Assembly (NCBI GenBank): GCA_047619225.1
Contig: JBLHJX010000003.1
Span: 4,294 to 68,293, forward strand
Length of the DNA stretch: 64,000 nucleotides
Direction of reading: 5' to 3'
Source of the DNA: Candidatus Latescibacterota bacterium
GTDB taxonomy: Bacteria; Latescibacterota; UBA2968
Part shown: positions 4,898-34,500 of the stretch, one piece after another
How positions within the stretch are numbered: position 1 is the first letter of the stretch
Layout: each line of letters opens with the position of its first letter
The notes under the pieces: generated by a model
Database searches by the model: none
Seen by the model: only the letters and a program-made list of their open reading frames with translations
Told to the model about the DNA's origin: nothing
Translations under genes and position numbers: made by a program

Positions 4898-4926
4898 ACA
4901 ACCCCTCAGGTGGCAACATTATCTCG

Positions 4927-4965
4927 ATACCTCATTTAATCAGATGATTAAATGAGGTATTTTTA
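4927..4965 (+). terminator. Rho-independent terminator after ppa
   Basis: A perfect 14-bp stem ATACCTCATTTAAT/ATTAAATGAGGTAT has a 6-nt loop and is followed by TTTTT. Confidence 0.85.
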
Positions 4966-5049: not shown

Positions 5050-5078
5050 CATCTAAGATCTTAGTAAGATCTTAGATG
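5050..5078. promoter_or_regulatory. Perfect 29-bp palindrome, a candidate operator or hairpin upstream of the RLP island
   Basis: CATCTAAGATCTTA-g-TAAGATCTTAGATG forms 14-bp arms around one central base. It sits in the 400-bp intergenic region before the gene at 5298. Confidence 0.4.
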
Positions 5079-5297: not shown

Positions 5298-7271
5298 ATG
5301 AGCAAATATGTGCAATATTATGGTGTCGATAGTCCACCAGCAGAACAGATGAACCTCCAAGCGGGGCCTGTGTCAATGGTGTTTGAGCCTGAACTGGGCT
5401 TTTTGCGCTACATCAAGGTGAATGGCCGTGAGATTTTGCGTGGGATTTATGTGGCCGTTCGCGATCACAATTGGGGCACAATTGCACCCAAAGTGGACAA
5501 TGTGTCGGTGGACCAATCGGGTGATGGTTTTGTGGTGACGTTTGATGTTTCCTGCGTGCAGCGAAACATTGATTTTTTCTGGCGCGGGCGCATTGTGGGT
5601 GATTCGAGTGGGGCGGTGGTTTATGAAATGGACGGAGATGCACGTTCCACATTCCTGCGCAACCGCATTGGTTTTTGTGTGTTGCACGCTCCGTCTGAGT
5701 GTGCGGGGGATGCGTGTGTGATCGAAAAGGCCGATGGCACAAGTGAAGAAGGGCATTTTCCCAGTGAGATTTCACCCCATCAGCCGTTTATAGATATGAA
5801 GGCGATTACGCACGAGGTGATCCCGGGTGTGAAGGCGCGAGTGGCTTTTGAGGGTGATACTTTTGAGATGGAAGACCAACGTAATTGGACGGACGCATCG
5901 TATAAGACTTATTGCACACCCTTGGCATTGCCTTTTCCTGTTGAAGTGAAAGCAGGCGAGAAGATCCAGCAATCGGTAACGGTTTCACTTGAAGGCGATG
6001 GGTTAGATACGGGTGAGGGAGAGGTCGCAGAGGACGTGACTTTTCAGGCAACAGGTGAACCTGCACGACGGTTGCCTGAAATTGGCTTGGGTGTGGCCAG
6101 CCACGGGCAGGTTTTAGGCGAAGAAGAGGTGTCTCGTTTGCGTGTGCTGAATCTGTCGCATTTGCGTGTGGATTTACATTTGTCGGTAGAGGGCTGGCGC
6201 AGCGCATTGGATCGGGCAGTTGCTGAAGTGACGGTGTTGGGTGTGAAGCTGGAGATGGCCATTTTTGTGAGCGATAATGCCCAAGCAGAGTTGGGTGTAT
6301 TGGGCGAAGCGTTGGCCGAGGCAAAACCAAATGTGGCACGCTGGTTTATTTTTCACGAAGGCGAGAAGTCAACATCGGCAGGTTGGGTGAAGTTGGCCCG
6401 TGAAGTTTTGAAAAAGTATGACACCAATCCCCCTTTGGGTGGGGGGACCCGAGCTTATTTCACGGAGCTCAATCGCAACCGTCCACCCGTGAAGGATATT
6501 GAGTGTGTGACCTATTCTCTCAATCCACAGGTACACGCGTTTGACAATGCGTCGATGGCAGAGACGTTGGAGGCCCAAGGTTGGACGGTGGACAGTGCAC
6601 GAAAGTTTGTGGGTGATTTGCCCATTTCTGTTTCGCCGGTGACATTGCGACCCCAATTTAATCCCAATGCGACTGGGAACGATTCTGAGGGTGATCTGGG
6701 AACTTTACCCGCCCAAGTAGACCCGCGGCAGATGTCCCTTTTTGGTGCTGGGTGGACACTGGGCAGTTTGAAATATTTGAGTGAGTCGGGTGTGCGCAGT
6801 GTGACCTATTTTGAAACGTCGGGATGGCGTGGGGTGCAAGAGACGCCCGATGGGTCGGCAGAACCTGAGCTTTTTCAATCCAAACCCTCATCTGTGTTCC
6901 CTTTGTATCACACGATGGCCTATTTTGGTGGTGTAAAGGGGGGCGAGATTGTTCCATCTGTTTCGAGCGACAAGTTGCGTGTGGAGGGTGCTATTTTGCG
7001 CAGGGGCAATTGGGTGCGGTTCTTGGTGGCGAACCTGACGGCAAAAGAACAGAAGATACGTGTGTCTTATGCAGGTCTAAAGGATACGGTTCGCGCTGAG
7101 GTAATGGATGAGACGTTTTTTGAAGATGCCACAGAGCACCCCGAACGATTTCGTTTGCGTAAGACCGAAATGCAAGGTGTGGTGATTGTTGAGGTGACAG
7201 ATGAAGCGTTTGAATTGACTCTGAAACCCTTTGCGTCGGTATGCGCTAAAGCAGCTGTTGATAATGGATAA
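5298..7271 (+). CDS. Hypothetical 657-aa cytoplasmic protein, function unknown
   Basis: GAGGAG lies 6 nt upstream of the ATG. Composition is protein-like throughout. There is no signal peptide and no motif I can assign. It ends 33 nt before the RuBisCO-like gene. Confidence 0.75.
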   Translation: MSKYVQYYGVDSPPAEQMNLQAGPVSMVFEPELGFLRYIKVNGREILRGIYVAVRDHNWGTIAPKVDNVSVDQSGDGFVVTFDVSCVQRNIDFFWRGRIVGDSSGAVVYEMDGDARSTFLRNRIGFCVLHAPSECAGDACVIEKADGTSEEGHFPSEISPHQPFIDMKAITHEVIPGVKARVAFEGDTFEMEDQRNWTDASYKTYCTPLALPFPVEVKAGEKIQQSVTVSLEGDGLDTGEGEVAEDVTFQATGEPARRLPEIGLGVASHGQVLGEEEVSRLRVLNLSHLRVDLHLSVEGWRSALDRAVAEVTVLGVKLEMAIFVSDNAQAELGVLGEALAEAKPNVARWFIFHEGEKSTSAGWVKLAREVLKKYDTNPPLGGGTRAYFTELNRNRPPVKDIECVTYSLNPQVHAFDNASMAETLEAQGWTVDSARKFVGDLPISVSPVTLRPQFNPNATGNDSEGDLGTLPAQVDPRQMSLFGAGWTLGSLKYLSESGVRSVTYFETSGWRGVQETPDGSAEPELFQSKPSSVFPLYHTMAYFGGVKGGEIVPSVSSDKLRVEGAILRRGNWVRFLVANLTAKEQKIRVSYAGLKDTVRAEVMDETFFEDATEHPERFRLRKTEMQGVVIVEVTDEAFELTLKPFASVCAKAAVDNG

Positions 7272-7304
7272 TGTGGGTGTTTATGTTTTTTAAGGGTGGT
7301 AAAT

Positions 7305-8567
7305 ATGAGCGAACGGATTGTTGCAAAATATCTCATGGAGACGGCCTTCCCTATAGAACAGGCAGCAGATGTTGTTGGGGGTGAACAATCTTCGGGTACG
7401 TTTGTGCAAGTGCCTGGTGAAACAGCTGATTTGCGTGAGCGGTTTCGGGCACGGGTTGAAGAGATTAAAGTGTTAGAGACGGTGTCGGAACCGAGTTTAC
7501 CTGGCGGGGCTGTGCCGAAAACGGGTGGGACTGAATACACACGTGCCGAAGTGACCTTGTCTTTTTCACTTGAAAATATGGGTGTGAACTTGCCCACTCT
7601 GATTGCCACGGTAGCTGGCAACTTGTTTGAGCTTCGCGATGTATCAGGTCTAAAGTTGTTAGATTTTGATGTGCCGCAAGCTTTTGCAGAGCGATATGTG
7701 GGACCCCAGTTTGGCATTGCAGGCACACGCAAACTTGCGGGGGTATTTGATCGCCCGATTATTGGCACGATTATCAAGCCGAGTGTGGGGTTAACACCCC
7801 AGGCGACAGCGGATGTGACAGGAGACTTGGCTGAGGCGGGGATTGATTTTATTAAAGACGATGAATTGATGGCCGACCCACCCCATTCGCCCTTAAAAGA
7901 GCGTGTGGAAAAGGTGATGGCGGTGATTAATAAGGCGGCGGATCGCACAGGGAAGAAGGTGATGTTTGCGTTTAATATTACCGATGAGTTGGACGCGATG
8001 CTTAGGCACCACGATACGGTTTTAGACGCGGGTGGCACTTGTGTGATGGTGAGTTTGAACAGTGTCGGATCGATGGGCGTTGCGCATTTGCGCAAGCATT
8101 GTCAGTTGCCCATTCATGGGCATCGCAATGGGTGGGGTATGTTGACACGGCATCCGATGTTGGGGATTGGGTTTTCGGCCTATCAGAAGATTTGGCGATT
8201 GGCTGGGGTGGATCATATTCATGTGAATGGCTTGCGTAATAAATTTTGGGAGCCTGACGATTCGGTGGTGCGATCTATTGAGGCATGTTTTAAACCTTTC
8301 TTAGGAGGGTATGACATCATGCCTGTGATTTCCTCTGGGCAGTGGGGCGGGCAAGCACCCGATACTTATAAACGTGTGGGGCGTGTGGATGTGATGCATT
8401 TGGCTGGCGGTGGCATTATGGCACATCCGGGTGGCCCTGCATCGGGCATGAAGGCAATGAGCCAAGCTTGGGAGGCAGCTGTACAGGGTATTGATTTAGA
8501 AACCTATGCAACGGATCATATAGAACTGCAACAAGCGATTGAAAAATTTGGAAATATGAACCGATAG
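7305..8567 (+). CDS. RuBisCO large-subunit-like protein (form IV RLP)
   Basis: Motifs seen: EQSSGTF, AGNLFE, GTIIKPSVGL, DFIKDDE, IHGHRNG, HIHVNGLRNK, PVISSGQWGG and LAGGGIMAHPGG, colinear with RuBisCO large-subunit active-site segments. The length of 420 aa is typical of RLPs. No small-subunit or phosphoribulokinase gene is nearby. The start was moved to ATG 7305 (AAGGGTGG upstream). Confidence 0.9.
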   Translation: MSERIVAKYLMETAFPIEQAADVVGGEQSSGTFVQVPGETADLRERFRARVEEIKVLETVSEPSLPGGAVPKTGGTEYTRAEVTLSFSLENMGVNLPTLIATVAGNLFELRDVSGLKLLDFDVPQAFAERYVGPQFGIAGTRKLAGVFDRPIIGTIIKPSVGLTPQATADVTGDLAEAGIDFIKDDELMADPPHSPLKERVEKVMAVINKAADRTGKKVMFAFNITDELDAMLRHHDTVLDAGGTCVMVSLNSVGSMGVAHLRKHCQLPIHGHRNGWGMLTRHPMLGIGFSAYQKIWRLAGVDHIHVNGLRNKFWEPDDSVVRSIEACFKPFLGGYDIMPVISSGQWGGQAPDTYKRVGRVDVMHLAGGGIMAHPGGPASGMKAMSQAWEAAVQGIDLETYATDHIELQQAIEKFGNMNR

Positions 8568-8597
8568 ATGTAGGTGCCTTTGGGTGATTGGGTTGGG

Positions 8598-8671
8598 AGT
8601 CCGTTTTAACGGACTGGGTGCATTTGTAGCATTGGGATTTATCCCAATGGCCTTTGTCGCGTGGGATTTAT
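8598..8671. promoter_or_regulatory. Cluster of short hairpins and a direct repeat between the RLP and GH140-like genes
   Basis: AGTCCGTT-tt-AACGGACT lies at 8598-8615. CATTGGGAT-tt-ATCCCAATG lies at 8630-8649. The decamer TGGGATTTAT occurs twice (8632-8641 and 8662-8671). No T-tract follows, so this is not a canonical terminator. Confidence 0.25.
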
Positions 8672-8701
8672 TCCGATCAATTGAATATCAGGAGAAAATG
8701 A

Positions 8702-10306
8702 ATGGCTGAAACCGAAGACTATAATGGCGGTGCTTCCGATGTGAGCAAGTGGGGACGTATTGAGATTACGTTTGAGAGTTCGGAAGTGTACCAAAACCCG
8801 ATACAAGAAGTGGCTTTGCAGGTGCTTTTTACATCGCCCTCAGGTGCCGCAACGCATGTGATGGGGTTTTGGGATGGAAGCACGCGTTTTCGGGCACGGT
8901 TTAGCCCCGAAGAAGAAGGGGTGTGGTCGTATGTAACGTTTTGTTCGGATATGGATAATGGGGGTTTACACAATCGAGAAGGTGACTTTATGTGTGGCCC
9001 AGCCGATACCATTACTGTGTTTGATGAACATGGTCCCATCCGTTTGTCTGGCGATCGCAGTCATTTTATACACGCCGATACAACGCCCTTTTTTTGGCTG
9101 GCCGATACCGCTTGGAATGGTTGTTTGCATTCGAGTAAAGATGAGTGGCGTTATTATTTGAGCGAACGGGTGCGCCAAGGGTTTACGGCGGTGCAGTGGG
9201 TGGCCACGCCTTGGCGATCTGCGCCTGCGGATAGAGAGGGTGAGAAAGCTTTTGAGGGTGTGGAGAAGATTAAGCTCAATCCACGGTTTTTTCAGCGTTT
9301 GGATGAGTGGTTGGAAATGACTTATGACGTTGGTTTGCTCAATGCGCCCGTGATGTTGTGGACCCACACGGGCGGTGAAAATGCCGAGATGAATCCTGGT
9401 GTGGGTTTGGCTGAAGACCAATTGATTTTGTTGGCCGAATATATGGTGGCGCGTTGGGCCAGTTATCCTATCGTCTGGATTTTGGGCGGTGATGGCAATT
9501 ACACTGGCGAACTGGCCGAACGGTGGCATCGCATTGGTCATACCGTGTTTGGCAAAGGCGTACATGCACCGGTGGCGATGCATGTTCAGGGGCAACAGTT
9601 TCCTGTTGAAGAATTTCGCAACCAAAGTTGGATGGATATTTTGGGGTATCAAAGTGGGCACGGAGATGGGGATAAGACGTTGGAGTGGATTGTGAAGGGG
9701 CCGCCAGCAGAAGAGTGGAAAAAGAGCCCGCGTCAATTTTATATGAATATGGAACCGGCTTATGAAAATCATGTGGCCTATCAATCGAAGAAACCACACG
9801 ATGCGGCATCTGTGCGAATGGCAATTTATTGGAGTCTGCTCAATGCACCTACAGCAGGGGTAACGTATGGGGGGCATGGGGTGTGGGGGTGGGACAATGG
9901 CAGCGGCCCACCTATGGATCATCCAAACTCAGGTACGCCTTTACCGTGGCGAGATGCGTTGATTATGGAAGGTGCCGAGCAGATGCGGCATTTGCGAGAT
10001 GCTTTTGAAACCATCCATTGGTGGCGGTTGCGTCCTGCACCAGAGATTTTGGCCGAACAACCAGGTGAAGAAGATGTACACGCACATATTCTCATTTCAA
10101 AGGCAGAAGCCAATGATTGGGTTGTCGCCTATACACCCAAAGGCAAAGCTGTGAAAGTCAATATGTCGGGATTGAAGAAACGCTTGGGCGCGGTTTGGTA
10201 TAACCCACGCACGGGTGATCCCGAAGCAGCAGAGTCGCGTGTAGAGGGTGACGTTCGCATCTTCGAGACCCCCGACGAAGAGGATTGGTTATTGGTGATG
10301 GCGTAA
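8702..10306 (+). CDS. DUF5060 + DUF4038 (glycoside hydrolase family 140-like) protein, with no signal peptide
   Basis: The N-terminal segment WGRIEITFES...VMGFWDGSTRFRARFSPEEEGVWSY resembles DUF5060. PFFWLADTAWNG...GFTAVQWV resembles the DUF4038/GH140 catalytic domain. CAGGAG lies 7 nt upstream of the ATG. Confidence 0.7.
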   Translation: MAETEDYNGGASDVSKWGRIEITFESSEVYQNPIQEVALQVLFTSPSGAATHVMGFWDGSTRFRARFSPEEEGVWSYVTFCSDMDNGGLHNREGDFMCGPADTITVFDEHGPIRLSGDRSHFIHADTTPFFWLADTAWNGCLHSSKDEWRYYLSERVRQGFTAVQWVATPWRSAPADREGEKAFEGVEKIKLNPRFFQRLDEWLEMTYDVGLLNAPVMLWTHTGGENAEMNPGVGLAEDQLILLAEYMVARWASYPIVWILGGDGNYTGELAERWHRIGHTVFGKGVHAPVAMHVQGQQFPVEEFRNQSWMDILGYQSGHGDGDKTLEWIVKGPPAEEWKKSPRQFYMNMEPAYENHVAYQSKKPHDAASVRMAIYWSLLNAPTAGVTYGGHGVWGWDNGSGPPMDHPNSGTPLPWRDALIMEGAEQMRHLRDAFETIHWWRLRPAPEILAEQPGEEDVHAHILISKAEANDWVVAYTPKGKAVKVNMSGLKKRLGAVWYNPRTGDPEAAESRVEGDVRIFETPDEEDWLLVMA

Positions 10307-10321
10307 ATATATAAAAGCGAC

Positions 10322-10349
10322 ACGTTAGGACGTTAGAACGTTAGAACGT
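10322..10349. repeat. Tandem octamer repeat (ACGTTAGR, 3.5 copies)
   Basis: ACGTTAGG ACGTTAGA ACGTTAGA ACGT lies immediately upstream of the AGGAGG of the dehydrogenase gene. Confidence 0.8.
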
Positions 10350-10361
10350 ATAGGAGGCGTG

Positions 10362-11312
10362 ATGAACGTTGTGTATCTCGAACCCGTTCCCGAAGATGTC
10401 GAATCGATTGTTCGAGAATGTTTGCCAAGTGAGTTGTCATTGCGGGTGCTCAAGGTCGATGAAAAGCCCGAGGATGTTGTTGCCGATGCCGATTTTTTGT
10501 TGGTGGCAACTACAAAGGTGACACCGAGTGTGTTGGATGCGGCTCCAAAATTAAAACATATCCAACATCAAGGTGTGGGTTATAACAATATTGATTTAGA
10601 CGCGGCCCGAGCCAAGGGTGTGACGATTGGATTGACGCCTGAAGGGACGAGTATTCCCGTTGCAGAACATGTGTTCCTTTTGATCTTGAGTCTGTATCGC
10701 AAGCTCTTTGAAGCGCGTCAATCCTTGCGCGATGGCAAATGGTTGCAGTGGGAATTGCGTCCACATTCCTACGACTTGGTGGGCAAGACGGTTGGCATTG
10801 TGGGGTTGGGCCGTATCGGGCGTGAGTTGACCACACGCTTACGAGCTTTTGGTTGCGAGGTGTTTTATACCGATGCTGTTCGTGTGTCTGAAGCCGAAGA
10901 GTTGCACTTAGGCGCGGTGTTTACCGATTTGGATGACTTGTTGCAACGATCTGATATTGTGAGTTTGCACGTACCACTTTTGCCCGAAACTCGCAACTTG
11001 GTTGGCACACGTGAATTGGCGCTGATGAAGTCGAATGCTATTTTGATCAATGCCGCACGTGGCGGACTTATTGATGAGAAGGCTTTGGAAGTCGCCCTAA
11101 ATGAGGGCCAAATTTCAGGCGCAGGTTTGGATGTTTTTGAACAAGAACCACCACCCAAAGATCATCCTTTGTTGTTTATGGACAATGTGGTTGCGGTTCC
11201 CCACATTGCGGCGGGGACGCGAGATGCTTACGCGACCAAGATGCGTGCCGCTTTTGCCAATATGCAACGGGTCGCACGCGGGGAAGATCCGATCAATCAG
11301 GTTGAATTGTAA
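10362..11312 (+). CDS. D-isomer-specific 2-hydroxyacid dehydrogenase (glyoxylate/hydroxypyruvate reductase-like)
   Basis: It has the NAD motif VGIVGLGRIGRE, then NAARGGLIDE and PHIAAGT (catalytic His region). The start is ATG 10362 after AGGAGG. Confidence 0.85.
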   Translation: MNVVYLEPVPEDVESIVRECLPSELSLRVLKVDEKPEDVVADADFLLVATTKVTPSVLDAAPKLKHIQHQGVGYNNIDLDAARAKGVTIGLTPEGTSIPVAEHVFLLILSLYRKLFEARQSLRDGKWLQWELRPHSYDLVGKTVGIVGLGRIGRELTTRLRAFGCEVFYTDAVRVSEAEELHLGAVFTDLDDLLQRSDIVSLHVPLLPETRNLVGTRELALMKSNAILINAARGGLIDEKALEVALNEGQISGAGLDVFEQEPPPKDHPLLFMDNVVAVPHIAAGTRDAYATKMRAAFANMQRVARGEDPINQVEL

Positions 11313-11337
11313 CCCACGCGATCAGGGAGCTTTTACG

Positions 11338-12420
11338 ATGTTTAACGCCAATCATAAAGACGAATATCCCGATACCGGTTTGATCGATCAATATGCCTAT
11401 CCTCCAGCCGGACATGATATTGATCTGTGGAAACGCGCGGTTCCGGGTGCCGTGGGGTTGGACGCCGAGGTGATTTCAGAATTGGATGCTTGTGTGAAGG
11501 CAAATCCTGATAATAGCAAGCGGCGAGAACAGCGGTGGGCTTTGTGGCGGAATGGGTATTTGATTGATTCTGTGGGTGAGTTTCACGATCCGATTAATGT
11601 GGCTTCTTTGCGTAAGACATGGCACGCGATGATTTTGGGGGCGTCTATCCTCAATGGGAAAGTGTCGTCATATGATCAGAAAGTGAGCGAATGGCAGACC
11701 GATATGGAGGGCCATCATCGCGAAGCAACGTGGCGACACGTGATCACCCAGTCGGCGGGGTTGGATTATCCTTATGGTGATTATCCAGCCTTCAAGCCGG
11801 GTGAGATGTGGACGTATTCCGATTTGAATTTGGTGCACTTTTGTCATGCGATGGGCAAGGTGTATGGCAAGGCTGATTTTTATGACGATTATGCGGACGT
11901 GGCCAAGCAGGCTTATTTCGATGCGATTGGGATGCAAGGGTGGGATACGAAGATTGTGTTTGATTCGGGAAGTCAGATGGATGATGGGGTTCGGTTTGTG
12001 ATCGACCTGGATCATATGGGGCGGTTGGGGTTGCTGGCTTTGGCGCGCGGACGTTGGATGGGGCAACAGTTGGTGCCGCGTTGGTTTGTTGAGGAGTTGG
12101 AGACCAAGCAGACCGAGGGGATGCAGGTGAACTATGTGGGACCCAATGATGGGATTTGCCACTTAAACGACTATCCCAATGCATTTCCCGAATGTCCGTA
12201 TGGTTATTTGACGTGGACAAATTCAGCGGGTGAACATTGGTCCGATGCAGATCGGGGTTGGGCATTTGGTGCGGGGGCTGGGGGCACATACATTATGTGG
12301 AATTATCGGTTGGGCATTGTGTTTGCCGCTGTGTCGTTAGATCTTAAACCTTTGGAGCGAACCATTCCACAGATTATCGAATCTCATATTTTGGGTGATA
12401 ACCCATTGGTGGTATTGTGA
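11338..12420 (+). CDS. Beta-lactamase-fold serine hydrolase (esterase/lactonase-like)
   Basis: It carries SxxK (VASLRKTWHA) and YxN (YSDLN) motifs. The start was moved to ATG 11338 (GGGAG upstream). The track's 5' extension overlaps the previous gene. Confidence 0.55.
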   Translation: MFNANHKDEYPDTGLIDQYAYPPAGHDIDLWKRAVPGAVGLDAEVISELDACVKANPDNSKRREQRWALWRNGYLIDSVGEFHDPINVASLRKTWHAMILGASILNGKVSSYDQKVSEWQTDMEGHHREATWRHVITQSAGLDYPYGDYPAFKPGEMWTYSDLNLVHFCHAMGKVYGKADFYDDYADVAKQAYFDAIGMQGWDTKIVFDSGSQMDDGVRFVIDLDHMGRLGLLALARGRWMGQQLVPRWFVEELETKQTEGMQVNYVGPNDGICHLNDYPNAFPECPYGYLTWTNSAGEHWSDADRGWAFGAGAGGTYIMWNYRLGIVFAAVSLDLKPLERTIPQIIESHILGDNPLVVL

Positions 12421-13850
12421 TGTTTTCGGGTGATCAGGTGATTCCAAAAGCTGATTTGTTGGATGCGCTTCCGCCCGAATGGCCGGAGGATATATCTGCA
12501 GAGTTGCAGGCGCGCATTCAAACACGCCGTCGCAAGTTGGTGGTTTTAGATGATGATCCGACAGGTGCTCAGGCGTTGCACAGTGCGCCGGTGCTCACGC
12601 GTTGGACGGCAGATGTATTGCGGTCTGCATTGTTAAATGATGCGGCACTGTTTTTTATTGTGAGCAATACGCGCAGCCTGCCACAAGGTGAAGCGGTTGC
12701 GGTGACACGTGAGATTGTGACGGCTGTGGCAGAAGTGGCAGATGCGTGTGGTGTGGGTTTTGATGTGTTGGTGCGGGGAGACTCTACATTGCGTGGGCAT
12801 TATCCACACGAACTCAATGTGGTTCGCGAGGTTTTAGGCGAGCGCGGGCAACATTTTGATGGGGTGGTTTTGTGCCCGTTTTTCTTAGAAGGTGGACGAC
12901 TAACAGCTTTTGATGTGCAGTGGGTAGCCGATGGTGAGCTGTTGGTTCCGGCAGGGCAGACCGAATATGCACGAGACCGTACGTTTGGATATACACATTC
13001 CAATCTTCGCGATTGGGTGGCAGAGAAAACGGGTGGAGGTGTTTCGCGGGACGATGTTGTATCAGTGTCTCTGGATGTGATTCGCAAACAAGGCTCTGAA
13101 GGTGTTAGTGATGTGTTGATAAACGTGAATGAGGGGCAGCCTGTTGTTGTGAATGCGGTGAGTTATCGGGATATGGAAGTGTTTGTTACTGGTTTGTTGG
13201 ATGCCGAAGATGCGGGTAAGCGTTTTATGTTTCGCACGGCAGCGTCTTTTTTAAAGGTGCGAAGTGGCACGGCCGAGCGTGGTTTGTTGCGAGGTAATGA
13301 TTTTGGTGTGTTGGACGGGTGTGGCGGATTGGTGATTGTGGGTTCCTATATCCAAAAGAGCACGGCGCAATTGAATGCAGCATTGGCTGTTGCGGGTGTG
13401 GTAAGTGTCGAGTTGCAGGTTGCGCGGGTTTTGAATTTGGAAGATCGGGCAGATGAAATTGCACGCGTGAGAAGTGGTGTGGAACAAGCGCTTGAATCGG
13501 ATCAAAATGTGATTGTTTTTACGAGCCGCACGCAAGACTTGGTAGGTGATTTGGATGCGGGGAAACTGATTGGTTCTGCGTTGGTAGAGGTTGTCCGCCA
13601 ATTGTCGGTGCGGCCTCAGTATGTTATTGTGAAGGGTGGTAATACGGCTATCTCGGTTGTGCGGGATGGGTTGCAGACAGAGCAAGCTTGGGCATTGGGG
13701 CAAATTTTGCCGGGCGTGCCTGTGTGGCAATTGGGTGAGGAGAGCCGCTTGCCCAACGCGCCGTGTGTGGTTTTTCCGGGCAATGTGGGGCAGGAAAACA
13801 GTTTGGCTGAGACGATTTCAATTTTACGGGAGGCACGGGATGGCATATAA
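12420..13850 (+). CDS. Four-carbon acid-sugar kinase family protein (DUF1537), paralog 1
   Basis: VVLDDDPTGAQ is the family's N-terminal hallmark, and the C-terminal segment VKGGNTA is also present. The start overlaps the upstream stop (GTGATG). Confidence 0.8.
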   Translation: MFSGDQVIPKADLLDALPPEWPEDISAELQARIQTRRRKLVVLDDDPTGAQALHSAPVLTRWTADVLRSALLNDAALFFIVSNTRSLPQGEAVAVTREIVTAVAEVADACGVGFDVLVRGDSTLRGHYPHELNVVREVLGERGQHFDGVVLCPFFLEGGRLTAFDVQWVADGELLVPAGQTEYARDRTFGYTHSNLRDWVAEKTGGGVSRDDVVSVSLDVIRKQGSEGVSDVLINVNEGQPVVVNAVSYRDMEVFVTGLLDAEDAGKRFMFRTAASFLKVRSGTAERGLLRGNDFGVLDGCGGLVIVGSYIQKSTAQLNAALAVAGVVSVELQVARVLNLEDRADEIARVRSGVEQALESDQNVIVFTSRTQDLVGDLDAGKLIGSALVEVVRQLSVRPQYVIVKGGNTAISVVRDGLQTEQAWALGQILPGVPVWQLGEESRLPNAPCVVFPGNVGQENSLAETISILREARDGI

Positions 13851-14673
13851 AACACATTCGATAAGCTACGAATTGCTGAATCAAAAAGGACACGAACCTG
13901 GGCCCGGTCGTGAAATTGAGGTGCATGCCTCGATTGAAGAACTTGAACAATTGGGCCATGAAGGTTATTTGGTTAGAGAAGAATTGTTCCAAGGTGAGGC
14001 CTTGGGCAAGTTACAAGATGCTTTGGATCGTTTAGAAGAAAACGAAAGTGCGCGATTTAAGGAGAACCCATCACAAGAGCGATCTTGGGGAAACATTCCC
14101 CGTCATTTGATGGACAAAGATTCCGTGTTCTTGGATCTGTTAAAGTTTCAACCGGTTTTGTCTGTGGCACGCGCGATGATGGGACCTTTGGTGCGTTTGC
14201 GCGGGTTGAGCGCACGCATCAGTTATCCGGGGCCCGTGCGACACGAGACACCTTGGCATCAGCATTTGCGTGTGGTGTCCAACCCTTTGCCGCCGTGGTT
14301 TTCTCGTCCACACGGATTGGACGCGTTGATTTATCTGGATGATTTAAATGAAAAGACGGGCGCTGTTGCCATTGTACCTCAGTCTCATAATTGGTTGGAC
14401 AGAGAACCGTCCGGTACTTATGAACGTGTTGAGGGCGAACTGGAAGTGTGCGTAAAGGCTGGCGGCGTTGTGATGATCCATTCAAATCTTTGGCATCGAG
14501 GTTTGCCCACACTGGGTGCCAAACGCCGCATGCTCATTTTAAGCTTTACGCCCACGTGGTTGCGTCGCTCACCTCATGGCGGTGCACCACCTGAGAATGG
14601 TTTAACCCAAGCGGTCTTAGATGGTAATGATGAAGAAGCTCGGATTTTATTGGGCAAGGGTGGATATACATAG
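13840..14673 (+). CDS. Phytanoyl-CoA dioxygenase (PhyH) family Fe(II)/2-oxoglutarate oxygenase, atypical metal motif
   Basis: PhyH-like segments are present (IVPQSHNW, IHSNLWHRGLP), but WHQH replaces the usual WHxD. ATG 13840 follows GGGAGG and overlaps the kinase gene by 11 nt. Confidence 0.7.
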   Translation: MAYKTHSISYELLNQKGHEPGPGREIEVHASIEELEQLGHEGYLVREELFQGEALGKLQDALDRLEENESARFKENPSQERSWGNIPRHLMDKDSVFLDLLKFQPVLSVARAMMGPLVRLRGLSARISYPGPVRHETPWHQHLRVVSNPLPPWFSRPHGLDALIYLDDLNEKTGAVAIVPQSHNWLDREPSGTYERVEGELEVCVKAGGVVMIHSNLWHRGLPTLGAKRRMLILSFTPTWLRRSPHGGAPPENGLTQAVLDGNDEEARILLGKGGYT

Positions 14674-14751
14674 GCAAGTTTTTTTATTCAAATGCCCATC
14701 ATAGAAGTAGGATTCCCAAGTCATATTATCAATAAGCAAAAGGAGCAGTTC

Positions 14752-16929
14752 ATGTCTGAGCGAATAGAAACAGGTGGTTTAAAAATTGATGCTGAATTAT
14801 ACACTTTGGTGACGGATGAAATTGTTCCTGGCACAGGCGTAGATGTGGATGCTTTGTGGGAAGGGTTTGGCAAGATTGTTTCAGATTTGGCACCCAAGAA
14901 TCGTGCATTGTTAGAAAAACGGGATGCGATTCAAGCGCAGATTGATGCTTGGCATGCAGAACGCAAAGGGCAAGGTCTTGACGCGGTGGCCTATAAAGCA
15001 TTTTTGCAAGAGATTGGATATTTGCAGCCTGAAGGGGATCACTTTCAAGTGCTCACAACAAATGTCGATCCCGAAGTTGCGAAGGTGGCTGGGCCACAGT
15101 TGGTGGTGCCCGTAGACAATGCGCGATATTGTTTGAACGCGGCCAACGCACGTTGGGGCAGTCTGTACGATGCGTTTTATGGCACCGATGTGATTGCTGA
15201 AACAGGTGGTGCTGAAAAAACGGGTGGCTACAATCCCGTGCGAGGTGAAAAAGTGGTTGCGAAAGCACAGGCTTTCTTGGATGAAACAGTGCCTCTGATA
15301 AGCGGATCTTACGCAACTGCGACGGGATTTTCACTTGGTGAGGTGGGTGGAAAGAAGGTGTTGATTGTGACTGTGGATGGTGAAAGCACGGGATTGCAAT
15401 CGCCAGATCAGTTTGTGGGTTATGTAGAAAAATATGGTGGGTTGATGACTGTGTTGCTTCAGAACAATGGATTGCACATCGAAATTCATATTGATGTCAA
15501 TCATCCCATTGGCAAAACACATCCGGCAGGGGTGAAGGATGTTGTGTTGGAGTCTGCGATTACGACCATTCAAGATTGTGAAGATTCTGTGTCGGCGGTT
15601 GATGCCGAAGATAAGGTGCGGGTGTATCGCAATTGGTGTGGTTTGATGAAGGGTACGTTGGTAACAACGTTTCAAAAAGGGGATGAGACGGTGAGGCGGA
15701 GGTTGAATCCAGATCGGCAGTATTCGGGTGTGGATGGAGAACCCGTCACATTGCCAGGGCGCAGTGTTTTGCTGGTGCGCAATGTGGGCATGCATATGTA
15801 TACCGATGCAGTGGTCACGGCTGATGGTGAAGATATTCCCGAAGGTTTTTTAGACGCGCTGGTGACTTCTTTGGCTGCGATTCACGATTTAAAGGGCAAT
15901 GGCGAGTTCAAAAACAGCCGATCTGGCAGTGTGTATATTGTGAAGCCGAAGATGCATGGGGCAGACGAAGTGGCGGCCACGGTGGAATTGTTTGACCGAG
16001 TGGAGGAAGTTTTGGGGCTGGAAAAGAATACGTTGAAAATTGGCATTATGGACGAAGAACGTCGCACAACTGTAAATTTGAAACGCGCTGTATGGGAGGC
16101 CCGCGAACGGTTGATTTTTATCAATACGGGATTTTTAGATCGCACGGGTGATGAGATGCATACCAGTATGGAAGCGGGTGCGATGTTGCCCAAGGCTGAG
16201 ATTAAGGAACAACCTTGGTTGGGTGCTTATGAAGATTGGAATGTGGATATTGGCATTGAGACTGGTTTGATTGGAAAAGGGCAAATTGGCAAAGGGATGT
16301 GGGCCATGCCCGATCAGATGAAAGCCATGATTGATTCTAAGATGGGACACCCCAAAGCAGGGGCCAGCACAGCTTGGGTGCCCTCTCCAACGGCAGCAAC
16401 GCTTCATGCGATTCACTATCATCAGGTGAATGTGGCAGATCGGCAAGACGAATTGGCCAAGCGGGAACGGGCAAGTTTAGACGCTATTTTGACGCCACCT
16501 TTATTAGATCGTGCGTTGACGGTCGAGGCCATTCAACGCGAGTTGGATAACAATGCCCAAGGCATTTTGGGGTATGTGGTACGTTGGATCGATCAGGGCA
16601 TTGGGTGTTCTAAGGTGCCCGATATGAACGATGTAGGCTTAATGGAAGACCGCGCCACGTTGCGCATTTCAAGTCAACACATAGCCAATTGGCTGCATCA
16701 AGGCATTGTGAGTGCCGAACTGGTGCGTGCCACACTTAAGAAGATGGCAGCAGTGGTTGATCGTCAAAATGCTGGAGATGCGCTTTACAAAAATATGGCG
16801 CCAAACTTTGACGCCAGCATCGCGTTTCAGGCGGCATTGGATTTGGTGTTTAAAGGGCGTGATGTGGCAAATGGGTATACTGAACCTGTGTTGCATGCGC
16901 GTCGCCGTGAAGCAAAAGCATCTTCTTAA
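14752..16929 (+). CDS. glcB: Malate synthase G
   Basis: At 725 aa it has characteristic segments ([25 protein letters not shown]). The start was moved to ATG 14752 after AAGGAG. Confidence 0.95.
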
Positions 16930-16939
16930 GGAGCGTTAT

Positions 16940-18061
16940 ATGTCCAGTGCACCGAAACCTGAAATGATCGCTCAGTGGCGACATCACCTGCAAGACGAAG
17001 CCGATGCCGCTTTTCTGTATCGACGATTATCAGACCATGAACCCAATCAAAAAAAGAAGGATCTGTATTGGCGTATGTCAGATGTCGAAGATCGACATAC
17101 AGAAGCCTGGCGGCAGGTGTTTAAAGAATATGACATTCCATTTAAAGAACCGCGCCCATCTCTGAAGTCGCGTTTCTTGGCTTGGGTAGGCTCTCATTTT
17201 GGTGCTGAGGTCTTGCTGTCATTCTTGTTGAGAGAAGAAGGTAAAGAGGTGAAGTCTTATCTCGAGCTGTATCAAAACAGTGAACCTGGAAGATCTAAAG
17301 AGACGGCGTTACGGTTGGCCAAGGAGTCTGCAGGCCATGCCGAAACATTGTCGGGCATTGCTGATATTGAAGGCGAGCCTTGGCATAATGCCGATTCAGG
17401 TGGTTTTGTGCGCAATGTGGTTTATGGATTTAATGATGGGTTGACTGCAAACTTTGGGTTGGTGGCTGGTGTTATTGGCGCAGCTGTTGAGCCACATATG
17501 ATTTTGGTAACAGGCGTGGCTGGTACAATTGCCGATGCGTTGTCTATGGGGTCTTCGGGGTATTTGGCTGCCAAGAGTGAGCAAGAAGTTTATACCTATG
17601 AGATTGAAATGGAGCGCACAGAAATTCAGTTGATGCCCGAATTGGAGACCGAAGAATTAGCACTGATTTATCAAGCCCGTGGTATTGATCGTGAGCAGGC
17701 TGAGGAACTTGCCCAAGATGTGATGTCTGATCCTGAGCGCGCTTTGGAAGAGAAGGTGCGTGAAGAGTTGAAGATTGGTGAACCTCATGCCACGCCTATG
17801 CAAGAAGCTTGGATAACGGGTTCGGCAACAGCCGTAGGTGCATTCATTCCTGTTGTGCCTTTTTTGCTGATGTCGGGGGCAACTGCCATGTGGACTTCAT
17901 TTGCCATTTCGATGTTGTCGCATTTTGCAGTGGGTGCGGCGCGTAGTTTGTTTACTGGGCGGAGTATTTTTCGCAGCGGGGGCGATATGTTGGTTGTTGG
18001 GTTTGGGGTTGCTTTGGGTGGTTATTTGGTGGGTGATTTGATGGTTCGCTGGTTGATGTAG
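16940..18061 (+). CDS. VIT1/CCC1-family membrane protein with an N-terminal ferritin-like (rubrerythrin-like) domain
   Basis: The ferritin-like N-terminus (EADAAFLYRRL...EDRHTEAW) is followed by the VIT1 hallmark GFNDGLTANFGLVAGV and C-terminal TM helices. AAGGAG precedes ATG 16940. Confidence 0.8.
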   Translation: MSSAPKPEMIAQWRHHLQDEADAAFLYRRLSDHEPNQKKKDLYWRMSDVEDRHTEAWRQVFKEYDIPFKEPRPSLKSRFLAWVGSHFGAEVLLSFLLREEGKEVKSYLELYQNSEPGRSKETALRLAKESAGHAETLSGIADIEGEPWHNADSGGFVRNVVYGFNDGLTANFGLVAGVIGAAVEPHMILVTGVAGTIADALSMGSSGYLAAKSEQEVYTYEIEMERTEIQLMPELETEELALIYQARGIDREQAEELAQDVMSDPERALEEKVREELKIGEPHATPMQEAWITGSATAVGAFIPVVPFLLMSGATAMWTSFAISMLSHFAVGAARSLFTGRSIFRSGGDMLVVGFGVALGGYLVGDLMVRWLM

Positions 18062-18071
18062 GGGATTGTGG

Positions 18072-19445
18072 ATGTCTGGTCTGATTTTAAGTTATTATGG
18101 CGATGATTTTACGGGTTCAACCGATGTGATGGAGTCGCTGTCCTTTGCAGGGGTGAAGACGGTGTTGTTTATGGCACCGCCAGCGCCTGAGCAGATCGCA
18201 CGATTTCCCGGTGTGAAAGCAGTGGGTGTTGCTGGGCGCACACGGTCGATGGCTCCTGATGATATGGTGCATGAGTTACGCCCTGTTTATGAAGCATTCA
18301 AGGGGTTGAACACTCCGATTGTACATTACAAAACGTGTTCAACATTTGATTCGGCACCCGATGTGGGCAGCATTGGACAGGCGATTGATTTGGGACACGA
18401 CGTGTTTGGATGTCCCTTTGTGCCGCTTGTTGTGGGTGCACCGGTTCTGAATCGGTATTGCGCGTTTGGCAATCTGTTTGCCCGGTCGGGATTAGAAAGT
18501 GACTTGTTTCGCTTAGATCGCCATCCTACGATGAAACAGCATCCGATCACACCGATGACGGAGGCCGATTTGCGGCTGCATTTGGCCAAACAAACCGATA
18601 AGGCTATTGGATTGCTGGATCTTTTGGCGTTGGGGTTGGATGATGAGGGTTTGGATCGGGCGTTTGATTCGGTGATGGATGCAAGACCCGATGTTGTGTT
18701 GTTTGATACGGTGTATGATGTGCATTTGCCAAAGATTGGGCGTCTAATTTGGCAACACGCACAAGCGGGCGCGTTGTTTGTTGCGGGGTCTTCGGGTGCT
18801 GAGTATGCATTGGTTGCCCATTGGCGCGATGTGGGCCTCATTCCTGAAGCACCTGTAATTCCAACTGTGGATAGGGTCGATCAAATTGTGATTGTTTCTG
18901 GCAGTTGTTCGCCTGTGACGGCCAATCAAATTGATTATGCCGTTCAGAACGGATTTGTTGAGGTTGCACTTGATCCCGTTTCTTTTGCAGATGAATCTAT
19001 GGTAGAGGGTGCGATTTCTGCAGGGATTAAAGCGGGTTTAGAAGCCTTAGCAAGTGGGGGGAGTGTGATTTTACACACGGGACGGGGGCCGAATGACCCG
19101 CGTATTGCAAAGACGACGGACTATTTGAAGGCGCAAGGGTATAGCGATTTGGACATCAAGCTGAGAAGTGGTGAGGTATTTGGTACGGCATTGGGGCGTA
19201 TTTTGAAGGGCATTTTGGCACAATCTAATTTGAAGCGTGCGGCAACAGCAGGAGGCGATACGTCGTATTATGTGGCAAAGGCCTTGGGCATTGAGGCATT
19301 GGAGGTGGTTGCGCCCACAGCACCCGGATCGCCTATGTGTCGGATTTATGGGGTGGATTTGGATGGTGTGGAGATGACGTTTAAAGGTGGGCAGGTAGGT
19401 AAAGTGGATTTTTTCGTTACTGTGAAGACGGGACAGTTTTCATAA
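18072..19445 (+). CDS. Four-carbon acid-sugar kinase family protein (DUF1537), paralog 2
   Basis: The N-terminal YYGDDFTGSTD motif and the C-terminal GGDTSYYV and FKGGQVG segments are typical of DUF1537 kinases. Confidence 0.8.
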   Translation: MSGLILSYYGDDFTGSTDVMESLSFAGVKTVLFMAPPAPEQIARFPGVKAVGVAGRTRSMAPDDMVHELRPVYEAFKGLNTPIVHYKTCSTFDSAPDVGSIGQAIDLGHDVFGCPFVPLVVGAPVLNRYCAFGNLFARSGLESDLFRLDRHPTMKQHPITPMTEADLRLHLAKQTDKAIGLLDLLALGLDDEGLDRAFDSVMDARPDVVLFDTVYDVHLPKIGRLIWQHAQAGALFVAGSSGAEYALVAHWRDVGLIPEAPVIPTVDRVDQIVIVSGSCSPVTANQIDYAVQNGFVEVALDPVSFADESMVEGAISAGIKAGLEALASGGSVILHTGRGPNDPRIAKTTDYLKAQGYSDLDIKLRSGEVFGTALGRILKGILAQSNLKRAATAGGDTSYYVAKALGIEALEVVAPTAPGSPMCRIYGVDLDGVEMTFKGGQVGKVDFFVTVKTGQFS

Positions 19446-19460
19446 CAGAAGGAGTAGGAA

Positions 19461-20294
19461 ATGGCAATAAAGATTGCTTTGGTCGGTGCCGCAGGTAACA
19501 TGGGCACACGGGCTTATAACGCATTGCATGTAGATTCCGATTACGAATTGTTTTGTATAGAAAGTCCGGCAGGTGTAGAAAAAATGCGTGAGCGGGGTGT
19601 TGATTGTGTGCTGTTGGAGGAAGCGGTTCAGGGGGCCGATGTGGCATTGATGACCGTGCCCGATATTTTGGTGGGCAAAGTGTCTACTTTGGTTGTGCCC
19701 CATTTAAGGCCAGGAGCCATGCTCATTGTGTTAGACCCCGCAGCACCTTACGCGGGTGAATTGCCCGTGCGAGATGATGTGAGCTACTTTGCAACACATC
19801 CGGCACATCCGCCGGTGTTTAATGATGAAGTAGATATGGCGGCTCGGCGGGATTTTTTTGGCAGTGGTTTGGCCAAACAATCGATTGTGAATGCGTTGAT
19901 CCAAGGGCCGGAAGAAGATTATGCCAAGGGTGAAGCAATTGGCAGCCGCATGTTTCAACCCATCTTACGGTCGCATCGGGTCACTTTGGAACAGATGGCG
20001 ATGTTGGAACCCGCGATGTCTGAAACCATGGCGGCCACTTGCATTACGGTGATGCGTGAAGCAATGGATGAAGCCATTTCACGCGGTGTGCCTGCCGAAG
20101 CCGCACGCGACTTCATGATGGGACATATCAATATTGAGTTGGCCATTGTATTTGATGAAATTGATTGGGAGTTTTCCGACGGCGCAAAATTGGCGGTAGA
20201 AAAGGCAAAAGAGACTGTTTTTCAGGCCGATTGGAAGAAAGTTTTTGACCGGGAGAATTTGTTAGCAAGCGTAAAAGATATTGTAAAAGGTTAA
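19461..20294 (+). CDS. Small NAD(P)-binding Rossmann-fold oxidoreductase (277 aa), family unresolved
   Basis: The N-terminal IALVGAAGNMG is a dinucleotide-binding motif. AGGAGTAGGA lies upstream. The gene starts 15 nt after the kinase paralog 2 stop. Confidence 0.6.
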   Translation: MAIKIALVGAAGNMGTRAYNALHVDSDYELFCIESPAGVEKMRERGVDCVLLEEAVQGADVALMTVPDILVGKVSTLVVPHLRPGAMLIVLDPAAPYAGELPVRDDVSYFATHPAHPPVFNDEVDMAARRDFFGSGLAKQSIVNALIQGPEEDYAKGEAIGSRMFQPILRSHRVTLEQMAMLEPAMSETMAATCITVMREAMDEAISRGVPAEAARDFMMGHINIELAIVFDEIDWEFSDGAKLAVEKAKETVFQADWKKVFDRENLLASVKDIVKG

Positions 20295-20351
20295 TATCAC
20301 ATGGGGCACGGTTTCTGTGCCTTTCTGTTTTCATACGATTGGGCTTGTTTT

Positions 20352-21005
20352 ATGCCTGCTGTTATCGACTCACCACGCGTGTTGTTAAAAGACCGTGCAT
20401 ATGAAGCTCTGAAAGCGTTGATCCTTCAGGAGGTTTTTCCGCCCGGATCATTTCTTTCAGAACGTCAATTGGTTGTGCGTTTGGAAATGAGCAAGACACC
20501 TATTCGTGCGGCCTTGGAACGTTTGGAGAGTGAGGGGTTGGTTTCTGTATCACCTCAGCAAGGCATTTTGGTGCGCGAAATTTCTGTGCATGAGGTGGTC
20601 GATATTTTTGATGTGCGCATTGCATTGGAGCGGTTTGCAATTCAACGGCTAGCGGGTGTGTTATCAGCAGAACAACAAGCGCAAGTAGAACAAAATTTAA
20701 GCGAACAAAAACAGGCACTTATACAAGGTGATGTACCCGTGTTTACAGAATTGGATGCAGACTTTCATATGATGCTGTGTGGTTTTTTAGGAAATCGTGA
20801 GGTGGTACATGTGATGCGCCGGTTGCGTGATCGGCTGTATCGCATCGCGCTTCAAGTGCTGCGACACGACGTGAATCGCATTCGCACCAGTTACGAAGAA
20901 CACAGAGAAATTTTCGACATGTTGGTTGCCCGTGACGGTGCGCGTGCTGCCGACTTGATTGATGCACACTTAGCTTATGGTAAGCAGGTTCTCATATCAA
21001 GATAG
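20352..21005 (+). CDS. GntR-family transcriptional regulator (FadR/FCD subfamily)
   Basis: It has a winged-HTH segment (SERQLVVRLEMSKTPIRAALERLESEGLV) and a helical C-terminal domain with His residues. The start was set to ATG 20352, since the upstream extension looks non-coding. Confidence 0.8.
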   Translation: MPAVIDSPRVLLKDRAYEALKALILQEVFPPGSFLSERQLVVRLEMSKTPIRAALERLESEGLVSVSPQQGILVREISVHEVVDIFDVRIALERFAIQRLAGVLSAEQQAQVEQNLSEQKQALIQGDVPVFTELDADFHMMLCGFLGNREVVHVMRRLRDRLYRIALQVLRHDVNRIRTSYEEHREIFDMLVARDGARAADLIDAHLAYGKQVLISR

Positions 21006-27622: not shown

Positions 27623-27650
27623 GTGTCATGTGTCCTTTGGTCTATTTTGT

Positions 27651-28709: not shown

Positions 28710-28753
28710 AGTTTCAAATCCTTGAAAGATAGTTTGATCGAATGGTTGTTTTG

Positions 28754-29944: not shown

Positions 29945-30050
29945 GGTATGCTCCTTCTTTGTTAAGCAGTTACCATGAACATTACTTCGATACCTTGGAT
30001 TACGTCAAAGGATATTTCTTAAAACAATGAATCAAGCAGATGTAGATCGC

Positions 30051-31943: not shown

Positions 31944-31957
31944 GTAAGATTCCTAAT

Positions 31958-34486: not shown

Positions 34487-34500
34487 GGTATATGCCTTAT

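Follow-up and report, generated by a model that had tools for sequence, protein, structure and literature searches.

Gene content and organisation of the island

The DNA analysed here is a 64,000-nucleotide (nt) stretch, hereafter the window, of contig JBLHJX010000003.1 from the Candidatus Latescibacterota bacterium assembly GCA_047619225.1. We concentrate on an island at positions 5298-21005 that encodes a RuBisCO-like protein (RLP), two DUF1537 kinases and a GH140-like hydrolase. The initial annotation described it as twelve plus-strand genes with short or overlapping junctions, a description borne out by the open reading frame (ORF) listing and by hidden Markov model (HMM) scans. We consider it rather probable that the island is an operon for cytoplasmic breakdown of apiosides by the oxidative D-apionate route in a marine member of Candidatus Latescibacterota. 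Its genes are as follows.

5298..7271, plus strand: ApnL-like D-apionolactonase homologue, 657 amino acids (NCBIfam NF049900)
7296..8567, plus strand: RLP of the 3-oxo-isoapionate-4-phosphate clade; ATG start probably at 7305
8702..10306, plus strand: GH140-like hydrolase with DUF5060, Apiosidase (DUF4038) and Collagen_bind_2 domains (Pfam)
10359..11312, plus strand: D-isomer-specific 2-hydroxyacid dehydrogenase (2-Hacid_dh_C, 1e-63)
11338..12420, plus strand: beta-lactamase-fold serine hydrolase with ASLRK as its SxxK motif (Beta-lactamase, a weak match at 1e-8)
12417..13850, plus strand: kinase 1, a DUF1537 kinase with a DDDPTG motif, in a clade apart from the characterised subfamilies
13840..14673, plus strand: PhyH-fold protein with H140-x-H142...H219 and R229 (PF05721, 4e-19)
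14692..16929, plus strand: malate synthase G (NF002825, 1189 bits, cut-off 565; TIGR01345, 1061 bits, cut-off 989)
16940..18061, plus strand: VIT1-family membrane protein with an N-terminal extension (VIT1, 4e-60)
18066..19445, plus strand: kinase 2, an OiaK-like 3-oxo-isoapionate kinase homologue with DUF1537 N and C domains (NF042436)
19461..20294, plus strand: ApnO-like D-apionate oxidoisomerase homologue, 277 amino acids, Rossmann and PGDH_C domains (PF16896, 1.4e-59)
20301..21005, plus strand: GntR/FCD-family transcription regulator (GntR and FCD domains)

The 11 junctions measure, in gene order, +24, +134, +52, +25, -4, -11, +18, +10, +4, +15 and +6 nt, the two overlaps lying between the serine hydrolase and kinase 1 (4 nt) and between kinase 1 and the PhyH-fold gene (11 nt). 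Three starts that were over-extended in the mechanical ORF list (serine hydrolase, 11338; PhyH, 13840; VIT1, 16940) were corrected to in-frame ATGs just past the preceding stop codon, and the start of malate synthase G may be the ATG at 14752, since the model match begins at residue 21. Almost all called genes between 155 and 26747, housekeeping genes included, lie on the plus strand, in a region with a GC skew of 0.2-0.3, and co-directionality alone is therefore weak evidence for a functional unit. The evidence beyond chance is synteny: L001 and L010, two related loci, have kept the gene order, and the core is found again in other phyla.

Homology of the core genes to the D-apionate pathway

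The oxidative D-apiose route reportedly described by Carter et al. in 2018 comprises ApsD, ApnL, ApnO, OiaK and an RLP acting as decarboxylase or as transcarboxylase/hydrolase. As a canonical cluster we used the one on the Shinella sumterensis plasmid NZ_CP132304 (L148), which carries an ApnO-type PGDH_C protein, an ABC transporter, a Gfo/Idh/MocA protein, a lactonase, an RLP, a DUF1537 kinase and a NanR regulator. The initial annotation proposed the island as an undescribed system, a proposal that does not hold for its core: ApnL, ApnO, OiaK and the RLP belong to the published pathway, and Rhizobiaceae plasmids carry the same four genes together with a Gfo/Idh/MocA dehydrogenase and an ABC transporter.

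The 657-residue protein, to which no place in the pathway had been assigned, matches the ApnL model over its full length (6e-103, 345 bits; cut-off 750) and corresponds to the lactonase step. It is 29% identical to the canonical-cluster lactonase, no signal peptide was seen in it on inspection by eye, and its homologues in L001 and L008 have the Pfam domains Apionate_lact_N, M and C. Kinase 2, singled out by the initial annotation as the supernumerary kinase, scores 485 bits on the OiaK model (1.5e-145; cut-off 700) against 172 bits on OtnK (cut-off 350) and 54 bits on DtnK, which places it outside the threonate and erythronate groups, as had been anticipated for an acid-sugar kinase of this island; it is 40% identical to canonical-cluster kinases, and the odd kinase is kinase 1. 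The ApnO-like protein is 47-50% identical to canonical-cluster PGDH_C proteins and has 5T57 as its nearest entry in the PDB (300 bits), with no match among NCBIfam models. The canonical clusters also contain GntR/NanR-type regulators.

The RLP belongs to the RuBisCO_large family of Pfam (3e-72) and scores 522 bits on the OiaX model NF042437 (1e-156; cut-off 700). Its scores of 127-174 bits on the MtnW methionine-salvage enolase models (cut-offs 409-514) agree with the earlier expectation that it lies outside methionine salvage, and its 253 bits on rubisco_III (cut-off 497) fall short of a bona fide RuBisCO. The nearest PDB entry is 3NWR (423 bits), and identity to the canonical-cluster RLPs of Shinella and Cupriavidus is 58-60%. 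Active-site residues E60, T65, N123, K175, K201, D203, E204, H294, R295, H327, K334, S379 and G403/404 are kept; the changes are K177 to S, which turns the KPK motif into KPS, and W66 to F.

Distribution and gene neighbourhoods

RLP relatives are encoded in 567 of 599 pattern-matched genome stretches. Members of the clade that are 55-71% identical to the window's RLP come from Verrucomicrobiota, Planctomycetota, Bacteroidota, Acidobacteriota, Gemmatimonadota and Halomonas, and the clade is also found on proteobacterial and haloarchaeal plasmids. We compared neighbourhoods at 80 genome loci by tblastn with the island proteins and by clustering of ORFs, the calling of which was crude. An RLP and an OiaK-like kinase occur together at 73 of the 80 loci, across many phyla; an ApnO-like gene is present at 21, an ApnL-like gene at 11 and GH140 at 8-10.

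These loci fall into two almost mutually exclusive context types. Type A, to which the window belongs, adds an ApnO-like gene (16-21 loci), often with ApnL, an ABC transporter, Gfo/Idh/MocA and GH140. Type R (41 loci; for example L049:9965-14634 of Pedobacter heparinus, L034, L044 and L067) adds a 220-residue protein of the Asp/Glu-racemase family, which has no NCBIfam match, and an SBF-family transporter; an ApnO-like gene is present at just one of the 41. GH127 flanks 19 of the type R loci, and other large glycoside hydrolases, Gfo/Idh/MocA and MaoC are often nearby. In a crude neighbour-joining tree the window's RLP groups with the ApnO-linked RLPs and the type R RLPs form a clade of their own. 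Type R may be a separate route for apiose or for another sugar of rhamnogalacturonan-II; we know of no published pathway to which it corresponds. The contexts tie the RLP clade to apiose- and pectin-degrading gene sets, which supports the apiose inference. Together with the homology of the core, these neighbourhoods uphold the earlier proposal, made from the RLP, a DUF1537 kinase, a small NAD enzyme and the GH140-like hydrolase, that the island serves the catabolism of apiose or a related branched sugar acid.

The nearest genome locus is that of a Candidatus Latescibacterota metagenome-assembled genome (L010), with an RLP 90% identical to that of the window. The window, L001 and L010 share the order ApnL, RLP, GH140-like hydrolase, 2-hydroxyacid dehydrogenase, kinase 1, PhyH, malate synthase G and kinase 2, with proteins of L001 and L010 76-90% identical in amino acid sequence to those of the window; L010 stops within kinase 2, and L001 goes on with ApnO and GntR. 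The five accessory genes interposed in this order (GH140-like hydrolase, dehydrogenase, kinase 1, PhyH and malate synthase G) are partly retained in the short contigs L093 and L095 as well. Other insertions vary: L001 and L010 have a GH5-like gene of 309 codons and an RraA-like aldolase/decarboxylase, L001 only has a histidine phosphatase (His_Phos_1) and a 462-residue protein, the serine hydrolase is present in the window and L001 and missing from L010, and VIT1 is present in the window and L010 and missing from L001. VIT1 and the serine hydrolase, each missing from one of two close relatives, are probably passenger or accessory genes. None of kinase 1, PhyH, the dehydrogenase and malate synthase G was found in the 79 remaining genome loci that were fetched with the RLP.

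Gemmatimonadota loci show the order ApnL, RLP, (sulfatase), kinase, ApnO, BPL, PanK, ..., CBM9. From this order, the core with its PanK and CBM9 neighbours looks ancestral and the five accessory genes look inserted. In clusters of this type (L008/L009:8054-17635 and at P0143) a sulfatase gene separates the RLP from the OiaK-like kinase, and the ApnO-BPL-PanK-...-CBM9 synteny, which the window shares, is retained; one of them also has a 390-residue PhyH, a nucleoside hydrolase and an MFS transporter.

Accessory genes

The assignment of DUF4038 and DUF5060 to the product of the third gene, made before any profile search, was confirmed, both domains scoring above their Pfam gathering thresholds (Apiosidase/DUF4038, 2e-68 and 231.7 bits against 26.5; DUF5060, 6e-20). 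Against the PDB the protein scores 91 bits on 8T9W, entitled 'Apiosidase', and 77 bits on 3KZS/5MSY; it keeps the FFWL(A/G)DTAW and EPxYExH stretches of the solved apiosidases, and it is 24-27% identical to the GH140s that adjoin RLPs in other phyla. No signal peptide is visible by eye, and the enzyme is for that reason probably cytoplasmic. The 2-hydroxyacid dehydrogenase falls between glyoxylate/hydroxypyruvate reductases and 3-phosphoglycerate dehydrogenases. The last gene before kinase 2 had been read as a ferritin-like/VIT1 protein; the VIT1 part stands, and the ferritin-like N-terminus falls short of significance in the HMM scan (Rubrerythrin, E = 0.2).

Kinase 1 has SBD_N and NBD_C domains (9e-49 and 1e-30), scores 47, 32 and 19 bits on the OtnK, DtnK and OiaK models, the first of these being its maximum on any NCBIfam kinase model, and shows no PDB match and no BLASTP similarity to kinase 2. 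Its clade is large and mainly metagenomic, with DDDPTG in 118 of 120 relatives. Most relatives lie outside RLP contexts: some are solitary, and others are encoded divergently beside an acetolactate-synthase-like thiamine pyrophosphate (TPP) enzyme, with a mutase and a xylose-isomerase-like gene. The TPP enzyme was considered as a glyoxylate carboligase and rejected, scoring 284 bits on that model, whose cut-off is 791; the model it fits best is PRK06154, 'thiamine pyrophosphate-requiring protein' (487 bits). Two JGI metagenome contigs (L150:2932-9440 and L151) carry the row LacI, DJ-1/PfpI, split transketolase, Asp/Glu-racemase-like protein and DUF1537 kinase. Its terminal kinase shares 57% identity with kinase 1, its transketolase halves 39% and 33% with E. 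coli AptA and AptB, and its racemase-like protein 27% with the racemase-family protein of type R loci. The arrangement is similar to the non-oxidative apiose route, except that a DUF1537 kinase takes the place of AplK. A role for kinase 1 as apulose kinase was rejected, E. coli AplK being an FGGY kinase and not a DUF1537 protein. The neighbours of the kinase 1 relatives suggest a keto-(acid) sugar as its substrate.

The altered metal motif that had been noticed in the PhyH-fold protein proved to be real: HxH stands where the HxD/E carboxylate is expected in all of the 120 best matches, H140-Q-H142 aligning with the HxD of EctD (WHSD) and DhiD (HRD), and the distal His (H219) and the 2-oxoglutarate-binding Arg position (R229) are invariant. 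The family is compact, with 304 proteins at E <= 1e-10, and a canonical HxD paralogue lies elsewhere in the window, at 26864-27622. Relatives of at least 70% identity are often encoded directly 5' of malate synthase G (in the window, L001, L010, L093, L090 and L097, the last with the order serine hydrolase, PhyH, malate synthase G), and relatives of 68% identity or less have PhyH paralogues, SDRs and enolase-superfamily genes around them and lack a neighbouring malate synthase. PhyH and malate synthase G may form an independent functional unit.

Proposed pathway and competing explanations

The oxidative D-apiose pathway has been set out with EC numbers (PMC11747546), and two RLP activities on 3-oxo-isoapionate-4-phosphate have been described (PMC6302742). 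By homology and conserved context, the island is predicted to convert the lactone to apionate, 3-oxo-isoapionate and its 4-phosphate, which the RLP would cleave. The GH140-like enzyme would hydrolyse an imported apioside or pectic oligosaccharide in the cytoplasm, and the serine hydrolase might de-esterify this substrate beforehand. The oxidant that turns apiose into the lactone is not a recognisable ApsD, and might be encoded elsewhere or be the HxH PhyH-like protein. The ApnL-like lactonase would then open D-apionolactone, the ApnO-like NAD enzyme would convert D-apionate to the beta-keto acid 3-oxo-isoapionate, kinase 2 would phosphorylate this, and the RLP would break the resulting beta-keto acid phosphate at its Mg2+/carbamate site; the GntR/FCD protein presumably regulates the unit. 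Of the two RLP outcomes we favour the transcarboxylase/hydrolase reaction, giving 3-phosphoglycerate and glycolate, because malate synthase G and a dehydrogenase that fits either product sit in the operon. It is plausible that these two enzymes drain glycolate or glyoxylate, in which case the two-carbon product would end as malate. A 3-phosphoglycerate product also fits at least some members of the clade, in that the Cupriavidus cluster with the same core adjoins enolase, pyruvate kinase and phosphoenolpyruvate carboxylase.

Several observations weigh against this interpretation. All core proteins score under the NCBIfam equivalog cut-offs (NF042437, 700; NF042436, 700; NF049900, 750 bits). 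The canonical Shinella plasmid cluster likewise falls under them on the same models (RLP 472, kinase 473, lactonase 313 bits), so these cut-offs are very narrow, and the window's core scores equal or exceed those of the Shinella cluster. HMM scans of 5298-21005 found no apiose dehydrogenase (ApsD) of the Gfo/Idh/MocA or SDR family. The closest Gfo/Idh/MocA genes, at 34563, 45513 and 46864, lie 14-27 kb downstream in other sugar-acid clusters, and those of the cluster at 40536-52929 would be the nearest candidates for the missing enzyme. The island has no sugar transporter, its sole membrane protein being VIT1, and representative ABC components from ApnO-type loci have no match in the window. 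The GH140-like protein is about 25% identical to known apiosidases, a similarity from which its specificity cannot be inferred. Conservation of the accessory genes is seen only in close relatives (76-90% amino acid identity), where shared ancestry alone could explain it; a role for them in the apiose pathway is plausible. At 18 ApnO-type loci of other phyla, malate synthase is not among the 25 most frequent neighbour families, and a Pfam census of 104 unassigned neighbour ORFs at these loci found no recurrent downstream enzyme. The glycolate inference is further weakened by the independent occurrence of the PhyH-malate synthase G pair: in L090:8004-13848, on a 4.7-Mb contig, PhyH, malate synthase G and PanK stand together with no apionate genes within 10 kb. 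The active-site motifs of the RLP do not separate decarboxylase from transcarboxylase/hydrolase, being the same across the clade.

It is therefore worth weighing what else the island could be. One possibility, which we regard as real yet clearly the less probable, keeps the same apionate core and makes the RLP a plain decarboxylase of the OiaC/OiaX type, yielding L-erythrulose-1-phosphate and CO2; erythrose-4-phosphate would then be reached through isomerases encoded elsewhere, and the dehydrogenase, kinase 1, PhyH and malate synthase G would be unrelated to the RLP product. The solitary PhyH-malate synthase G-PanK group fits this proposal, as does the failure of glycolate- or glyoxylate-handling genes to recur near ApnO-type RLPs of other phyla. 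The best match to OiaX does not help it, as no OiaT model matched in NCBIfam and the score is below the cut-off too, and the isomerases themselves are wanting: no triose-phosphate-isomerase-like or RpiB-like gene is seen in the island, and neither family is among the 25 most frequent neighbours of ApnO-type loci. The neighbours of the Cupriavidus core likewise fit 3-phosphoglycerate as the product in at least some members of the clade. Also conceivable, though we doubt it, is a mosaic in which the apionate genes, a glyoxylate module of PhyH and malate synthase G, an iron exporter and an esterase are functionally unrelated and adjoin one another only through tight packing on one strand, with the accessory genes outside apiose catabolism. 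The plus-strand bias that extends to housekeeping genes would permit such a mosaic; VIT1, the serine hydrolase, the RraA-like gene, His_Phos_1 and two further genes vary among close relatives, L090 has its three genes alone, and the Gemmatimonadota loci run from ApnL-RLP through kinase and ApnO to BPL and PanK without the accessory genes. However, the accessory genes are interleaved with the core, with 4- and 11-nt overlaps and gaps of 4-55 nt, the GH140-like gene, dehydrogenase, kinase 1, PhyH and malate synthase G stay constant in all three of the related genomes while the other insertions vary, and a GH140-like hydrolase makes functional sense beside this core.

Two further proposals depart more strongly from the canonical pathway. 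The substrate could be another branched sugar acid, or the intermediate could be doubly phosphorylated: two unrelated DUF1537 kinases would make a bisphosphate, which the RLP would cleave in a RuBisCO- or oxygenase-like manner to 3-phosphoglycerate and (phospho)glycolate, as in the D-hamamelose pathway of Ochrobactrum anthropi, with glyoxylate passing to malate synthase G. One operon does hold two kinases, R295, H327, S379 and G403/404, which serve the two RuBisCO phosphate sites, are kept in the RLP, the relative L001 has a histidine phosphatase, and malate synthase G and the dehydrogenase lie within the unit. But the phosphate-site residues are conserved equally in canonical one-kinase clusters, the relatives of kinase 1 lie mainly outside RLP contexts, and the ApnL-, ApnO- and OiaK-like partners are exactly the apionate set, all of which makes this proposal very unlikely in our view. 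The earlier suggestion of either a new variant or a different substrate thus survives in its first half, as a variant of the apionate pathway with the apionate partner set, and a different substrate is improbable. Finally, an ApsD-independent Latescibacterota variant can be imagined in which the accessory genes add new chemistry: the HxH PhyH would form the lactone by oxidising apiose or an apioside at its anomeric carbon, or make glyoxylate for malate synthase G, kinase 1 would add a second phosphate or take a second keto-(acid) sugar, and the three- and two-carbon acids from the RLP would both be assimilated within one operon. We hold this to be unlikely.

Flanking features and the remainder of the window

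Four further features bear on the limits and the regulation of the island.

4926..4961, plus strand: terminator-like hairpin with a 16-bp stem and a T-run, 3' of a pyrophosphatase gene
5050..5078: perfect palindrome of 14+1+14 (29 bp), CATCTAAGATCTTA-G-TAAGATCTTAGATG, about 220 nt 5' of the first gene
21017..21775, plus strand: type III pantothenate kinase (PanK), starting 11 nt 3' of the GntR gene; a housekeeping, syntenic neighbour
21942-21968: second terminator-like site

The hairpin at 4926-4961 is likely to be the upstream boundary of the transcription unit, and PanK is probably co-transcribed with the island, as only 11 nt separate it from the GntR gene. In comparison with shuffled sequence, neither scan class of terminator-like sites exceeds expectation. 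The palindrome is present in a single copy in the window (none expected) and may be an operator for the GntR regulator; its reading as a conserved operator is not supported, there being no copy in any related locus fetched.

Two more sugar-acid clusters lie downstream. The first (26864-40102, minus strand) contains the canonical HxD PhyH, esterase-like and URO-D-like genes, two heparinase II/III-like lyases, Gfo/Idh/MocA, two enolase-superfamily proteins, an RraA-like aldolase and a flavin monooxygenase-like protein. The other (40536-52929) contains Ldh_2, a 509-residue protein with no Pfam match, an aldo-keto reductase, an enolase-superfamily protein, two Gfo/Idh/MocA proteins, a xylose-isomerase-like TIM barrel and an Opp-type ABC binding protein with permeases. 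Across 1-64000 the GC skew is uniformly strong, at 0.10-0.33 in every 2-kb window, and the whole stretch probably lies on one replichore with a leading-strand gene bias.

Significance and comparison with known systems

With this island the RLP-dependent pathway of apiose breakdown reaches into a marine phylum that is uncultured and thought to degrade glycans of plants and algae; seagrass and duckweed pectins rich in apiose would be a plausible substrate. The island also nominates three unassigned enzyme families whose biochemical setting is defined: an orphan DUF1537 kinase clade, a three-His PhyH-fold family that travels with malate synthase G, and a cytoplasmic GH140-like hydrolase. For automated annotation, it matters that the curated OiaX, OiaK and ApnL cut-offs miss canonical-looking clusters; because they miss even a Rhizobiaceae plasmid cluster of that kind, most members of the pathway can be expected to receive no more than generic annotation. 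The PGAP names on plasmids are generic.

Among other pathways that cleave small acid sugars, the closest in outline is that of D-hamamelose, reportedly described for Ochrobactrum anthropi by Kim, Lim and Lee in 2018 with an RLP oxygenase. It too is reported to proceed from a branched sugar through lactone, acid and phosphate to RLP cleavage into three- and two-carbon acids, the latter of which would fit malate synthase G; compared by pathway description only, it differs in that the partners in the island are the apionate set ApnL, ApnO and OiaK. Passages of PMC8914248 and PMC10176493 cite the hamamelose RLP. In the OtnK/OtnC system and with the threonate and erythronate kinases, a small (keto-)acid sugar is likewise phosphorylated on its terminal hydroxyl by a DUF1537 kinase, and C-C cleavage follows. 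By contrast, kinase 2 prefers the OiaK model to that of OtnK, kinase 1 fits none, and HMM scans of the island found no class II aldolase or PdxA-like partner. The 3-oxo-tetronate pathway with OtnK/OtnC and the D-threonate and D-erythronate kinases are said to have been characterised by Zhang et al. in 2016.

The accessory proteins show a similar mixture of likeness and departure. With GH140 (Bacteroides thetaiotaomicron BT1012, PDB 5MSY/3KZS; also 8T9W) the hydrolase shares the Apiosidase/DUF4038 domain, the C-terminal Collagen_bind_2 and both signature stretches, whereas its low identity to those beta-D-apiofuranosidases, its extra N-terminal DUF5060 and its probable cytoplasmic location set it apart. 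In fold, distal His and 2-oxoglutarate-binding Arg position the PhyH-fold protein agrees with the Fe(II)/2-oxoglutarate PhyH family (EctD, KanJ, PhyH), but a His stands in for the carboxylate of the HxD/E...H triad, here as throughout the 120 relatives compared.

The oxidative D-apiose pathway itself is the nearest relative of the whole: homologues of ApnL, ApnO, OiaK and the RLP stand with a GntR-family regulator in one co-directional unit. The island differs from it in lacking a Gfo/Idh/MocA or SDR apiose dehydrogenase and an ABC or TRAP transporter, in carrying five conserved extra genes among the core genes, and in its host, an uncultured phylum of the FCB group and not a member of Proteobacteria or Actinobacteria. 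Taken together, the core is a member of a known pathway and the whole cluster is a variant of it, without ApsD or transporter and with five additions; the new part is lineage-specific and consists of the cytoplasmic GH140-like hydrolase, the dehydrogenase, kinase 1, the HxH PhyH and malate synthase G.

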